5,431 nucleotides of DNA from Acidobacteriota bacterium (lineage in GTDB: Bacteria; Acidobacteriota; Vicinamibacteria; Vicinamibacterales; JAHECP01): assembly GCA_024641665.1 (NCBI GenBank), contig JAHECP010000003.1, positions 31,697-37,127 of the forward strand, read 5' to 3'. Below the pieces are notes generated by a model that was not told the origin of the DNA, ran no database searches, and saw nothing but the letters and a program-made list of their open reading frames with translations. Numbering within the stretch: position 1 is the stretch's first letter; each line of letters opens with the position of its first letter. Of the stretch, positions 330-5,394 are shown one piece after another. The translations under genes were made by a program, and so were the position numbers.

Positions 330-1685
330 ATGGCCACTGCGACCCTCCTCGTCGTCGACGACGAGCAGCTCATTCGCTGGTCGCTCGTCGAGCGGCTCCG
401 GCAGGAAGGACACCGCGTGCTCGAAGCGGGCACGGGCGCCGAAGCGCTCGAGCGCTGCAGCGACGACGTGGACCTGGTGCTGCTCGACTACCGGCTTCCC
501 GACGCCGACGGGGTGACGCTTCTCCGGCAGATCCGCAAGGCGCACCCCGACACGGTCGTGATCATGATGACGGCGTACTCGAGCGTGGACGTCGCCGTCG
601 AGGCCATGAAGGAGGGCGCGTACCACTACGTCGGCAAGCCCTTCAACCTCGACGAGGTGACGGTCCTCGTCGACAAGGGCCTCGAGACGACGGCGCTCCG
701 GCGCGAGCTGCGGGTGCTGCGCGCCAGCCAGACCGAGCGGTACGAGATCGAGCGCATCGTGGGCGACTCACCGGTGATGCGGCAGCTCAAGGAGCTGCTG
801 GCGAAGGTGGCCGTGAGCCCGGCGTCCACGGTGCTCCTGACCGGCGAGAGCGGCACCGGCAAGGACCTCGCCGCCAAGGTGATCCATTACACGAGCGCGC
901 GGGCGGGCCGCCCGTTCATGAACATCACCTGCTCGGCGTTGCCCGAGGCGCTGCTCGAGTCGGAGCTGTTCGGGCACGAGCGCGGCGCGTTCACCGACGC
1001 GCGCCAGCAGAAGCGCGGGCTGCTGGAGTCGGCCGACGGCGGCACGGTCTTCCTCGACGAGATCGGCGAGATGGTGCCGGCGCTGCAGGCGAAGCTACTG
1101 CGCTTCCTCGAGGAGAAGACGTTCAAGCGCGTGGGCGGCGCGGCGGACGTGCGCGTGGACGTGCGCGTGATCGCCGCGACCAACCGCAACCTCGAGGACG
1201 CGGTGTCGCAGGGGAAGTTCCGCGACGATCTCTACTACCGCCTGAACGTGCTGCCGGTCACGCTGCCGCCGCTGCGCGATCACCCGAGCGACATTCCACG
1301 GCTCGTCGCCTACTACGTGGACGCGTTCGGCCGCGAGTTCCGCAAGCCGGTGCGCGGCGTGACGCCCGAGGCGATGGAGCGGCTGCAGCGGCACGGCTGG
1401 CCGGGCAACATCCGCGAGCTGCGCAACGTGGTGGAGCGGGCGGTGCTGCTCGCGGAGACCGAGCGGCTCGGACCCGAGCAGTTCCCGATGCTCTCGGCGC
1501 GCCCCGCGACGTCGGGCTTCGAGCTGCCGCCGACCGGCGTCAATCTGGATGAGCTGGAACGCGACCTGGTGGTGCAGGCGCTGGGCCGCGCCGGAGGCAA
1601 CCAGACCCGAGCGGCCGCCCTCCTGGGCCTCAACCGGGACCAGATTCGGTACCGCATCGAGAAGTTCGGTCTTGGCAAGTCGTAG
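330..1685 (+). CDS. NtrC-family sigma-54-dependent response regulator (receiver + AAA+ sigma-54 interaction domain + Fis-type HTH)
   Basis: 451-aa ORF from ATG 330 to TAG 1683-1685. Receiver motifs: LLVVDDE, LVLLDYRLPDADG (phospho-acceptor Asp), MMTAYSS, GKPF. AAA+ motifs: Walker A GESGTGKD, GAFTDA loop, Walker B VFLDEIGE, RVIAATNRNL, FRDDLYYRLNV, WPGNIRELRNVVERA. C-terminal HTH: GGNQTRAAALLGLNRDQIRYRIEKFGL. Strong GC3 bias. Confidence 0.95.
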   Translation: MATATLLVVDDEQLIRWSLVERLRQEGHRVLEAGTGAEALERCSDDVDLVLLDYRLPDADGVTLLRQIRKAHPDTVVIMMTAYSSVDVAVEAMKEGAYHYVGKPFNLDEVTVLVDKGLETTALRRELRVLRASQTERYEIERIVGDSPVMRQLKELLAKVAVSPASTVLLTGESGTGKDLAAKVIHYTSARAGRPFMNITCSALPEALLESELFGHERGAFTDARQQKRGLLESADGGTVFLDEIGEMVPALQAKLLRFLEEKTFKRVGGAADVRVDVRVIAATNRNLEDAVSQGKFRDDLYYRLNVLPVTLPPLRDHPSDIPRLVAYYVDAFGREFRKPVRGVTPEAMERLQRHGWPGNIRELRNVVERAVLLAETERLGPEQFPMLSARPATSGFELPPTGVNLDELERDLVVQALGRAGGNQTRAAALLGLNRDQIRYRIEKFGLGKS

Positions 1686-1768
1686 GGCTTCCACCCCAGG
1701 CGGAAAACGGGGTCAGACCCCCTGCCCGCCCCTTCCCCGGCCGGGCGACTTTTCCCAGGGGCCCGGGC

Positions 1769-1778
1769 GGAATATTCC
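1769..1778. promoter_or_regulatory. Perfect 10-bp palindrome GGAATATTCC; candidate upstream activator or architectural-protein site for the sigma-54 promoter
   Basis: Exact palindrome and a locally AT-rich island in GC-rich DNA. Its centre is about 77 nt upstream of the -24 GG (about -102 from the predicted start near 1876), the usual distance for bEBP enhancer sites. Confidence 0.3.
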
Positions 1779-1849
1779 CCAGATCCGGCCCTCGGAGGCG
1801 CGTCATGCCGGGAAACCGGCCCGTCTCGGCCCCTCTTCTGCCGTCTTTC

Positions 1850-1865
1850 TGGCACGCTGGTTGCT
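1850..1865 (+). promoter_or_regulatory. Sigma-54 (RpoN) -24/-12 promoter
   Basis: TGGCAC gctgg TTGCT matches the consensus TGGCAC-N5-TTGCW at every specified position, with GG at 1851-1852 and GC at 1863-1864. It lies in the 272-nt gap between the response regulator and the nfu-like gene. The predicted start near 1876 gives a leader of about 82 nt. Confidence 0.8.
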
Positions 1866-1957
1866 GAAAATCCGGCGGGTGGTTGCCTGCGTGAGGCGTG
1901 GGCTCGAGATGTGCGCATCCCCAGGGGTCTCGGGACGGGGGCGCGGGAGAACCAGGC

Positions 1958-2182
1958 ATGGTGACTCGGGAACGGGTCGAGGCGGTGCTCGAGCGGGTTC
2001 GTCCCTTTCTGCAGGCGGACGGCGGCGACATCGAGCTGCTCGAGGTGCAGGGCAACAGCGCCAAGGTGCGGCTGACGGGGATGTGCGCCGGCTGCCCGAG
2101 CGCGCACATGACGCTCTACATGGGCGTCGAGATGGCGCTGCGCGAGGAGATTCGGGAGTTCGAGGAGCTGCAGGTCGTCTGA
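1958..2182 (+). CDS. Nfu / NifU C-terminal-domain protein (small Fe-S cluster carrier/scaffold-like)
   Basis: 74 aa counted from ATG 1958, which is preceded by GGGAGA (1945-1950). Family-typical segments: VRPFLQADGGDIELLEV and the CxxC motif in LTGMCAGCPSAHMTL. The ORF track start at 1898 adds a low-complexity 20-aa extension with no RBS. Confidence 0.85.
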   Translation: MVTRERVEAVLERVRPFLQADGGDIELLEVQGNSAKVRLTGMCAGCPSAHMTLYMGVEMALREEIREFEELQVV

Positions 2183-2198
2183 CCGGGATCGGCACGAG

Positions 2199-3248
<1,050 letters not shown>

Positions 3249-3274
3249 CGCCCGGATGCCGGGAGGAGTCGAAC

Positions 3275-3679
3275 GTGAAGGAGACGCGGTACGGCCTCGG
3301 GATCGACGTGGCCACGGGATTCGATGAGACGGTCGGGCGCGTGACCGACGCGCTCAAGGCCGAGGGCTTCGGCGTGCTGACGACGATCGACGTGCAGGCG
3401 ACGCTGAAGCAGAAGCTGGATCGGGACTTCCGGCAGTACGTGATTCTGGGCGCCTGCAACCCCCACCTCGCCAGCCGGGCGCTGGACGCCGAGCTCGAGA
3501 TCGGGCTGCTGCTGCCCTGCAACGTCATCGTGTACGACCGCGGCGACGGTCGCACCGCCGTGTCGGCCATGGCGCCGATCCCGGCGATGGGGATCGTGGG
3601 CAACGAGACGCTGAAGGCGGTGGCCGTCGAGGCCGACGCGCGGCTGCGCCGCGCGCTCGGGTCGCTCGAGTCGAAGTAG
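3275..3679 (+). CDS. DUF302-family protein (function unknown)
   Basis: 134 aa counted from GTG 3275, which is preceded by a strong SD GGGAGGAG (3261-3268). Family-typical segments: YVILGACNPHLASRAL and LLLPCNVIVYD; the size is typical. An alternative in-frame GTG at 3245 would overlap the upstream TGA as GTGA, so the start is uncertain by 10 codons. Confidence 0.85.
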   Translation: MKETRYGLGIDVATGFDETVGRVTDALKAEGFGVLTTIDVQATLKQKLDRDFRQYVILGACNPHLASRALDAELEIGLLLPCNVIVYDRGDGRTAVSAMAPIPAMGIVGNETLKAVAVEADARLRRALGSLESK

Positions 3680-3823
3680 CCGCGGCCCCGCCGTCGCATC
3701 GGATGTCGACGCGCTGGAGGAGCGCCGGACGGCCCCGCGCCGCCCGGCGGCAGCGCCAATCGTAGCGACTGGCCCCGACCCGCCGCCGGGAGCGACCGGG
3801 CCTTCGAGTACTCGAGGACCGCC

Positions 3824-4828
<1,005 letters not shown>

Positions 4829-4836
4829 CGAAAGGT

Positions 4837-4862
4837 CGGCACGCGCGCGGGGCGGCGTGCCG
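4837..4862. other. Inverted repeat CGGCACGC-N10-GCGTGCCG; either a U-tract-less terminator hairpin after activator B or an enhancer site for the downstream sigma-54 promoter
   Basis: cggcacgc (4837-4844) and gcgtgccg (4855-4862) are exact reverse complements. The repeat starts 9 nt after the TGA at 4826-4828. Its centre is about 68 nt upstream of the -24 GG at 4917-4918. No T-run follows. Confidence 0.4.
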
Positions 4863-4915
4863 GACAGCCCGCTCGAGGCCAGGATTTCCGGGCGATCTCG
4901 AGCCCCGCACCGCCC

Positions 4916-4931
4916 TGGTATCGGTGTTGCT
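4916..4931 (+). promoter_or_regulatory. Candidate sigma-54 -24/-12 promoter
   Basis: TGGTAT cggtg TTGCT has GG (4917-4918) and GC (4929-4930) at the exact consensus spacing, a full TTGCT -12 element identical to the one at 1861-1865, and a preceding C as in YTGG. The -24 hexamer differs from TGGCAC at two positions. Confidence 0.55.
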
Positions 4932-4944
4932 ACCTCGAACCGAC

Positions 4945-5394
4945 ATGGAGTCCGCCGTCGTGTCCACCGCCGTGCCGCCGGGCGGCGCGTTGCGCGTCCA
5001 GGTGCTGGGCGCGGACGCCGACCCGGTTCCGCCGGCCGATCTGGCCCGGCTGTTTCCCCGCCTGCGCCCGTTCTCGCCGCGCTTCGACCGCCTCGCCCAC
5101 GCCGCCCGCATCGAGGTCACCGAAAACGACCGGCTCGTGGGGCTGGCCCTCTATCAGCGCGCCGAAGAGGAGCTGCGCGTCCCCGAGCTGGGCGTGAACA
5201 CCACCTCGGCCGGCGGCACGCACGAGGTGCTGAACGTGCTCTTCGACGCGCTCGAGACCGCCTGCCTCGCCGGCGGCCACCGGCGCCTCATCGTAACCCC
5301 GCCCGCGACGGCGCTCGCGATGCTGCAGCGCCGCGGCTACACCCTCATCCGCGAAGGCTGCGCCGGCACCTGGCTCGAGAAGATCTTCGAGTAG
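4945..5394 (+). CDS. Small hypothetical protein with GNAT (acetyltransferase)-like C-terminal topology; product uncertain
   Basis: 149 aa from ATG 4945 to TAG 5392-5394, with good GC3 bias. LRVPELGVNTTSAGGTHEVLNVLFDALETACLAGGHRRLIV...ALAMLQRRGYTLI resembles GNAT strand 4, a degenerate motif A loop, helix 3, strand 5 and the xxGF/Y strand. The part of track ORF 4498..5394 upstream of 4829 overlaps activator B out of frame and is rejected. An in-frame GTG 4960 with GGAG at 4947-4950 is an alternative start. Confidence 0.55.
   Translation: MESAVVSTAVPPGGALRVQVLGADADPVPPADLARLFPRLRPFSPRFDRLAHAARIEVTENDRLVGLALYQRAEEELRVPELGVNTTSAGGTHEVLNVLFDALETACLAGGHRRLIVTPPATALAMLQRRGYTLIREGCAGTWLEKIFE

Follow-up and report, generated by a model that had tools for sequence, protein, structure and literature searches.

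A putative two-tier sigma-54 cascade with four-cysteine activators in Acidobacteriota

The window considered here, a 5,431-nucleotide stretch of DNA from a soil Acidobacteriota bacterium (GenBank assembly GCA_024641665.1, contig JAHECP010000003.1, positions 31,697 to 37,127 of the forward strand), carries the genes of three sigma-54 activators, or bacterial enhancer-binding proteins (bEBPs): an NtrC-type response regulator (RR) and two short paralogues, EBP_A and EBP_B, which share a four-cysteine (Cys4) motif. Together with two sigma-54 promoters, P1 and P2, they appear to form a two-tier cascade in which one sigma-54 activator would control the synthesis of the next and which is conserved in Acidobacteriota, a reading that as a whole we hold to be somewhat better than an even bet. 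The features on which it is built, including a sixth open reading frame (ORF6), are as follows.

330-1685, + strand: response regulator (RR), with Response_reg, Sigma54_activat, AAA_lid_14 and HTH_8 domains (Pfam)
1767-1780, no strand: enhancer-like palindrome GCGGAATATTCCCC, with its core GGAATATTCC at 1769-1778, 82 bp upstream of the -24 element of P1
1806-1820, no strand: second conserved box TGCCGGGAAACCGGC, about 37 bp upstream of the -24 element of P1
1850-1865, + strand: P1, sigma-54 (-24/-12) promoter TGGCACGCTGGTTGCT, exact consensus, predicted start near 1876
1958-2182, + strand: Nfu-type protein of 74 aa, NifU C-terminal domain PF01106 (E 9e-25), with CAGC
2199-3248, + strand: EBP_A, with Sigma54_activat, AAA_lid_14 and HTH_8 (Pfam) and no N-terminal domain
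2907-2957, + strand: Cys4 motif of EBP_A (C237, C244, C246 and C253, from the alignment of 26 proteins)
3275-3679, + strand: DUF302 protein (Pfam PF03625, E 2e-25)
3824-4828, + strand: EBP_B, paralogue of EBP_A, with Sigma54_activat, AAA_lid_14 and HTH_8 (Pfam)
4532-4582, + strand: Cys4 motif of EBP_B, with a C-x-C-D signature
4916-4931, + strand: P2, sigma-54 promoter TGGTATCGGTGTTGCT, predicted start near 4942, 3 nt before the ORF6 ATG
4945-5394, + strand: ORF6, 149 aa, GNAT fold by AlphaFold and Foldseek

In the mechanism that we propose the RR would bind the palindromic enhancer, some 80 bp upstream of P1, and open that promoter, with its partners in relatives probably being a PAS histidine kinase and a single-domain receiver that are encoded just upstream. 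P1 would transcribe nfu, EBP_A, the DUF302 gene and probably EBP_B, and a metal centre held by the Cys4 motif would gate the ATPase or the oligomerisation of the activators by redox, oxygen or iron status, much as has been suggested for the NifA cysteines of alpha- and beta-proteobacteria. Output would then require both a phosphorelay signal, for synthesis of the activators, and the right redox or metal state, for their activity. EBP_B, seen as a lineage-specific duplicate, would activate P2, which lies so near the ORF6 start codon that the ORF6 mRNA may be leaderless or nearly so. Which activator binds and fires which promoter, the metal centre and the physiological signal are all put forward here as predictions from sequence.

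All six genes lie on the + strand, and the RR, EBP_A and EBP_B each contain PF00158 (E 1e-66 to 3e-68), AAA_lid_14 and the Fis-type helix-turn-helix (HTH) PF02954 (Pfam). The window had been read once before from its letters alone, and the genes and the two -24/-12 motifs of that original prediction were all recovered at the same coordinates by Pfam and a motif scan, the NtrC-type regulator at 330-1685 by its domains and the promoter that follows it as an exact consensus. Relatives for comparison came from three sets: 80 metagenomic loci picked by the family-specific peptide ENACERIAQTCxCG, several long contigs obtained by exact-protein look-ups, and two genome loci, the true orthologues by whole-protein alignment among 80 from a genome-contig profile scan. 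The remaining 78 of these 80 genome loci, generic bEBPs of other phyla found with the pattern E[ST]ELFGHE, served as a negative control for the cysteine motif. The ENACERIAQTCxCG motif has at least 600 matches in JGI metagenomes, and the plasmid collection held nothing closer than 46% identity.

It is apparent from these loci that the RR, P1, nfu and a short bEBP gene form a core that is widespread in Acidobacteriota, and that the DUF302 gene, EBP_B, P2 and ORF6 are a lineage-specific extension of it. The full order of Pat-like acyltransferase, Usp (-), PAS-kinase (-), receiver, RR, P1, nfu, EBP_A, DUF302, EBP_B, P2 and ORF6 is found again in L083 and L084; L166, with a contig that begins inside the RR gene, shows it from that gene on. 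ORF6 identity in the three loci is 88%, 74% and 61%, respectively. Most other Acidobacteriota loci hold the core only, as kinase, receiver, RR, P1, nfu and EBP (L001, L002 and many metagenomic contigs). B-type activators are marked by the C-x-C-D signature and most genomes have the A type only; L003 has a lone B-type activator, accompanied by a divergent nfu, P2 and ORF6 and without an A type in its vicinity. The conservation of gene neighbourhood that had been suggested as a check is thus found, for the full order in three loci and for the core in dozens of metagenomic ones, and the earlier remark that the combination was not recognised as a described regulon agrees with our finding no published description of it.

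P1 (TGGCACGCTGGTTGCT) is an exact TGGCAC-N5-TTGCW, with 0.00 matches expected in shuffles, and in both P1 and P2 the GG and GC dinucleotides are 10 nt apart, as sigma-54 promoters require. The pattern TGGYAY-N5-TTGCW, which was chosen post hoc from sites already seen, is found twice in the window against 0.01 times expected, both times on the + strand and between genes. Of 54 related loci that could be evaluated, 53 have a -24/-12 motif (GG/GC fixed, at most 2 mismatches) no more than 140 nt before nfu, and this conservation marks P1 out as a functional island.

Upstream of P1 there is a further conserved arrangement. A palindrome GGGGAwwwwTCCCC is found 73-88 bp upstream of the -24 T in most P1 regions when these are anchored on the -24 element, its distances fall into two classes about 10 bp apart, which is about one helical turn, and several loci have a second copy around 22 bp further upstream. 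The window palindrome GCGGAATATTCCCC is the sole match there to GGGAWWWWTCCC at up to 1 mismatch, with 0.09 expected. Alignment of the P1 regions of 6 relatives gives three islands of conservation, the palindrome, a box TGCCGGGAAnCCG and the promoter, and the palindrome is unchanged among them although its flanks vary. Within the 1806-1820 box, for which a proximal binding site or a bending element are candidate roles, TGCCGGGA..CCG is invariant in the same alignment, and related ccggaaaaccggc boxes stand at the matching position across the family. Copies of the palindrome are also present between the kinase and receiver genes of L083, L093, L098 and L137, which is the pattern expected of an autoregulating response regulator, and in L098 another sigma-54 motif stands 84 bp downstream of a copy. 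A search of the window for the NifA-type site TGT-N10-ACA gave no match.

The RR itself has a PF00072 receiver at residues 7-112 with the AAA+ and HTH domains fused behind it (Pfam), the architecture of an NtrC-type regulator, and in 25 of the 31 loci that could be evaluated an orthologue of it is encoded upstream of nfu. It reaches no cut-off of the NCBIfam equivalogs AtoC, NtrC, NtrX and ZraR (the best is AtoC, at 467 bits against 714) and is therefore taken as an unnamed member of the NtrC type. Its sigma-54 contact loop reads GAFTDA (GHERGAFTDA), not the canonical GAFTGA; among orthologues GAFTDA is found in 15, GAFTGA in 13 and GHEKGAFTGA in one, the D thus being present in about half (15 of 30). 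Ahead of the RR gene TTATAAT, a perfect -10-like hexamer, is found at 315-321, 9 nt before the ATG (330) and with no Shine-Dalgarno sequence, and the RR too may be translated from a leaderless mRNA; a consensus scan of the whole window found no full sigma-70-like promoter.

The second tier rests on EBP_A and EBP_B, which are 74% identical, share one architecture and have nearly identical HTH recognition helices. In both the AAA+ domain begins at residue 14 (Pfam), so that they have no N-terminal sensory domain, and both have the GAFTGA loop, which is kept in 81 of 83 Cys4 activators. Within Acidobacteriota the members of the EBP_A family share 70-94% identity over some 345-350 aa. The mark of the family is C-x6-C-x-C-x6-C (ENACERIAQTCxCGTVRVGC; C237, C244, C246, C253), invariant in all 26 aligned proteins and present in 119 of the 120 top database homologues, which begins within the final lid helix of the AAA+ domain (RELENAC) and continues into the linker. 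None of the 78 generic bEBP loci of other phyla has the motif, and since their AAA+ and HTH domains can otherwise be aligned it is dispensable for the fold. Directly upstream of the Cys4 activator gene is nfu, in 57 of 59 evaluable loci, whose product has PF01106 and a CxxC (CAGC) and is predicted to bind and transfer clusters. We infer that the Cys4 motif may bind a metal centre, Fe-S or other, which the co-transcribed Nfu would load, with Fe-S favoured over zinc because a nfu gene is a near-obligatory member of the same operon.

The original prediction had called both activators sensor-less, which stands as far as an N-terminal sensor domain goes (Pfam), but the invariant Cys4 motif is itself a candidate sensor and EBP_A and EBP_B are probably not sensor-less. 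In the same way its relay is borne out as an architecture of sigma-54 upon sigma-54, dedicated and conserved, although a pure relay is less likely than an AND gate given the invariant Cys4 motif and the near-obligatory Nfu partner.

The second promoter is conserved within the lineage that carries the extension. Taken by mismatch count alone P2 (TGGTATCGGTGTTGCT) is not significant, having 2 mismatches to TGGCAC-N5-TTGCW, such matches being expected 1.6 times, and its reality thus rests on conservation. The 16-mer is identical in five relatives (L082, L083, L084, L104 and L168), where the intergenic flanks have a mean identity of 77%, in L166 it is TGGTATTGCTGTTGCT, with TGGTAT/TTGCT kept and the spacer different, and L003 has TGGCACCGCGGTTGCT at the P2 position. 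P2 lies between EBP_B and ORF6 in seven of eight loci, and the constant -24/-12 blocks beside a drifting spacer and flanks are read as the footprint of a sigma-54 promoter, which on comparative grounds marks P2, like P1, as a functional island. The original prediction had placed this second match at 4916-4931 in front of an ORF, and its correct spacing and its conservation in relatives uphold that. The ATG of ORF6 follows the P2 motif by 14 nt in the window, L082, L083, L084, L104 and L166, within an invariant CATGGA, and with a start about 12 nt past the GC the predicted leader of the ORF6 mRNA is only about 3 nt; a non-exhaustive text search found no description of sigma-54-dependent leaderless transcripts.

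ORF6 has no match in Pfam or NCBIfam, and none of the 26 homologue clusters of its family has a Pfam domain. Its AlphaFold model (pLDDT 86) has only GNATs among its top 50 PDB matches (Foldseek, E about 3e-6, TM 0.55-0.67), so that the earlier description of it as GNAT-like was right at the level of the fold. Two cysteines, C107 and C139, are conserved, and the acetyl-CoA pyrophosphate loop (Q/R-x-x-G-x-G/A) after strand 4 is variable in an alignment of 23 sequences. ORF6 is the next gene after the B-type activator in all eight loci with downstream sequence and is never found without a B type. It had been proposed that both short activators drive P2, yet ORF6 and P2 accompany EBP_B only, in 8 of 8 loci, and of that proposal the part in which EBP_B drives P2 is the likelier.

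Between the two activators lies the DUF302 gene, which follows EBP_A in the window and in L083, L084, L085, L095, L099, L104 and L166. In L093 (6920-7318, -) and L112 (7996-8400, -) a DUF302 gene is found downstream of the activator on the opposite strand with a sigma-54-like motif of its own (7352-7367 and 8471-8486, respectively), so DUF302 looks to be a recurrent regulon member and not an accidental insert. The literature gives no function for DUF302, only an association with sox clusters and micro-oxic induction. The gap from DUF302 to EBP_B is 144 nt in the window against 23 nt in L084, and as it is so short in L084 EBP_B is probably part of the P1 operon; a terminator scan found nothing within the cluster.

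A number of observations weigh against the proposed cascade and lead on to other explanations. Among those that concern the cysteines, one homologue (P0105) lacks one Cys of the motif, two loci (L131 and L155) are without nfu, a structural zinc site would be indistinguishable by sequence, the AlphaFold model of EBP_A, from a 26-sequence alignment, has a pLDDT of 47 and is too poor for Cys geometry, and the likeness to the cysteines of NifA, which is taken up below, is positional and not homologous as the spacing differs. They bear on a purely transcriptional relay, in which EBP_A and EBP_B are always active once made, like an unrestrained PspF, with structural cysteines that bind, for example, zinc, and with Nfu as a co-regulated protein of housekeeping type. 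The missing N-terminal regulatory domain, the likeness in sequence of zinc and Fe-S sites and the unusable model would all agree with it. It has, however, to contend with a Cys4 motif that is invariant in the family yet absent from alignable bEBPs elsewhere, with the linkage to Nfu, and with the closest positional precedent, NifA, being redox-sensitive via Cys in the same region (PMC10590331), and we regard it as unlikely.

The enhancer of P1 raises a further difficulty, which is that the palindrome is kept in loci without an adjacent RR (L109, L112, L144 and L142). Assigning its binder through covariation of HTH helices with the enhancer was rejected, as neither the RR helices nor those of the Cys4 activators vary across the family. 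Hence P1 might be mainly autoregulated by the Cys4 activators, in the manner of fixRp1 for NifA in Bradyrhizobium, the palindrome being theirs and the RR acting elsewhere or priming the loop, and in keeping with this bEBP genes often adjoin their own targets. In the window and L083 both promoters, P1 and P2, are preceded at about 30-37 bp by a loose CCGG-A/T-CCGG box, which could be a site shared by the A and B types; an enhancer common to the two promoters was rejected as a candidate, for the palindrome is absent upstream of P2 and this loose box is the only resemblance. That absence from P2 speaks against autoregulation of P1, as do the RR being adjacent in 25 of 31 loci and the palindrome between kinase and receiver, a placement typical of two-component systems that regulate themselves. 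Moreover a sigma-54 loop activated solely by its own product could never start. Autoregulation as the main control of P1 is thus judged improbable, with the RR the preferred activator.

The last points against the cascade concern its second tier. P2 is absent in L167, where ORF6 starts 7 nt past the stop of the B-type activator (816-824), behind a Shine-Dalgarno GGAG and without a sigma-54 motif. The hairpin at 4838-4861, after the ebpB stop, was examined as a terminator and does not exceed shuffled sequences in stability (z about 0), so that P1 transcripts may extend into ORF6. As L167 co-transcribes ORF6 with EBP_B in the absence of P2, ORF6 could be as much a partner as a target of EBP_B, and the pairing of activator and ORF6 seems older or stricter than P2. 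It could be that EBP_A and EBP_B form an obligate mixed hexamer like HrpR/HrpS, in which DUF302, ORF6 or Nfu acts in trans as the anti-activator, like PspA towards PspF or HrpV towards HrpS, and that P2 and ORF6 are a feedback arm, not a physiological output. Tandem, co-oriented paralogues of 74% identity without cis regulatory domains match the description of HrpRS (PMC3105312), their nearly identical recognition helices and the constant place of ORF6 beside EBP_B would fit as well, and the unconserved acetyl-CoA loop of ORF6 fits a non-enzymatic binder. But most genomes have only the A type and L003 a B type without a nearby A, which argues that each can work alone, and no similarity to PspA or HrpV was found, which makes an obligate hexamer distinctly unlikely. 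Autoregulation of P1 and a mixed hexamer are each compatible with parts of the cascade preferred here.

That the -24/-12 matches are chance in a GC-rich genome whose genes use other promoters is essentially excluded, for although matches of P2 grade are expected by chance and the promoter scan, which found no sigma-70-like promoter either, has little power, P1 is an exact and conserved consensus and the P2 footprint recurs in 7 independent loci, in six of them with a constant 14 nt between motif and ATG.

Sigma-54-like motifs are also found beyond the region shared with the window. They stand before Usp, TonB and multihaem cytochrome genes in L002 and L117, and, in L084 and L168, before genes for cytochromes and MtrB-PioB porins, where FeoB and a Crp/Fnr regulator are encoded close by. 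These last motifs are CGGCATGACCTTTGCT (11512-11527) and CGGTACACCGTTTGCT (15321-15336) in L084 and CGGTACGCCGTTTGCT (3661-3676) in L168, each about 115-125 nt upstream of a multihaem cytochrome gene that an MtrB/PioB-type porin gene follows, and AGGCACGCCGCTTGCC (2975-2990, -), also in L084, lies upstream of a Usp gene. Lying just outside the region homologous to the window, these L084 and L168 motifs are possible further targets of the cascade.

In lineages without DUF302, EBP_B and ORF6 a single-domain receiver gene often follows the Cys4 activator, and past that receiver is a conserved CGGCAC-N5-CTTGCC (L002 9600-9615, L117 4659-4674, L135 2016-2031 and L132 1996-2011), which stands before Usp, TonB-C, multihaem cytochrome and SulP genes (Pfam). 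The regulon in relatives probably includes Usp and multihaem-cytochrome/porin genes, and the neighbouring Usp, cytochrome and porin genes suggest a response to low oxygen or in electron transfer. In Bradyrhizobium a Usp and a DUF302 protein are induced by micro-oxia (PMC6515984), which is circumstantial for the cascade considered here. At its widest, and offered tentatively as a possibility to which we give well under even confidence, the reading would be that the short Cys4 activators are an unrecognised class of Fe-S-dependent sigma-54 activators, matured by a dedicated co-transcribed Nfu and widespread in soil Acidobacteriota, which act as the second tier of a PAS-kinase/NtrC-type cascade and switch on a programme of low-oxygen or extracellular electron transfer (Usp, multihaem cytochromes and MtrB/PioB-type porins) and, in the present lineage, also a GNAT-fold protein whose leaderless mRNA would depend on sigma-54.

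Elsewhere in the window an 88-nt direct repeat lies at the left edge (1-88 and 138-225, 99% identical, with a 137-nt period) and may extend further, and in L137 a related tandem array (6386-6622, 98-nt period, 2.4 copies) is found downstream of the Cys4 activator; the two look like an intergenic repeat family of these Acidobacteriota. No Rfam families were found in the 5' untranslated regions or elsewhere in the window.

The control of sigma-54 activators usually falls to an N-terminal sensor domain or a partner protein, and if the reading is true an activator of about 350 aa with a Cys4 lid motif as its sole candidate input, and with an Fe-S carrier of its own, would be a third route of control. 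Acidobacteriota are a dominant soil phylum that is genetically almost unexplored, in which the module is abundant and adjoins cytochrome and porin genes connected with the metabolism of iron and with electron transfer. For experiments there are now defined promoters, an enhancer sequence and mutational targets. The mechanism of redox sensing by the cysteine/metal site of NifA is poorly understood (PMC10590331), and the Cys4 activators could be a tractable model for it.

Precedents exist for sigma-54 cascades, for paired bEBPs and for redox control of a bEBP through Cys, and it is the combination of an NtrC-type regulator, a conserved enhancer and promoter, Nfu and GAF-less Cys4 activators, duplicated here and wired to a GNAT-fold orphan, that appears undescribed. 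In the Klebsiella cascade, which runs from NtrBC through nifLA to nif, the second bEBP integrates an oxygen or redox signal and opens further sigma-54 promoters. The operon of that second bEBP has a sigma-54 promoter that is opened by a phosphorylated NtrC-type bEBP (see also the bEBP review PMC7175178). The same step, from an NtrC-type bEBP to a sigma-54 operon that encodes a second bEBP, is proposed here, but the second-tier activators are two paralogues without GAF and NifL, with Cys4 as the candidate sensor and Nfu as operon partner, and the neighbours are not nif genes but Usp, DUF302, the GNAT-fold ORF and multihaem cytochromes.

NifA itself has four conserved Cys in this region that are proposed to bind a redox-sensing metal cluster (PMC10590331, PMC7294313). 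In both proteins they run from the RELEN(A)C helix, and EBP_A is 41% identical to the S. meliloti NifA (from pSymA), in which SKC-x11-ELENC-x19-C-x4-C covers the same region with an unrelated spacing. The best NCBIfam match of EBP_A and EBP_B is to the central domain of NifA, with TIGR01817 scores of 349.5 and 356.1 bits against a cut-off of 528.85. With C-x6-C-x-C-x6-C in place of the C-x11-C-x19-C-x4-C of the oxygen-sensitive NifA subclass, with no GAF, with a score below the cut-off, with no TGT-N10-ACA site and in a different phylum and gene context, the two are rejected as NifA proteins, the resemblance being one of mechanism.

PspF and HrpR/HrpS are likewise made of AAA+ and HTH only and have their control in trans, the tandem co-oriented paralogues resemble hrpRS (PMC3105312), and the order of activator gene, sigma-54 promoter and small gene in ebpB-P2-ORF6 is that of pspF/pspA. 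However, the Cys4 motif and the Nfu linkage have no counterpart there, most genomes hold a single copy, EBP_A and EBP_B score below the PspF cut-off (TIGR02974, 262 and 270 bits against 443), and no homologues of PspA, HrpV or HrpG were found among the six window proteins (Pfam, NCBIfam).

Lastly, the AND-gate logic is shared with the route from FixLJ or RegSR to nifA. In rhizobia these PAS-kinase two-component systems control the transcription of a redox-sensitive activator. FixJ and RegR, however, are not bEBPs, whereas in the cascade proposed here both tiers would depend on sigma-54.

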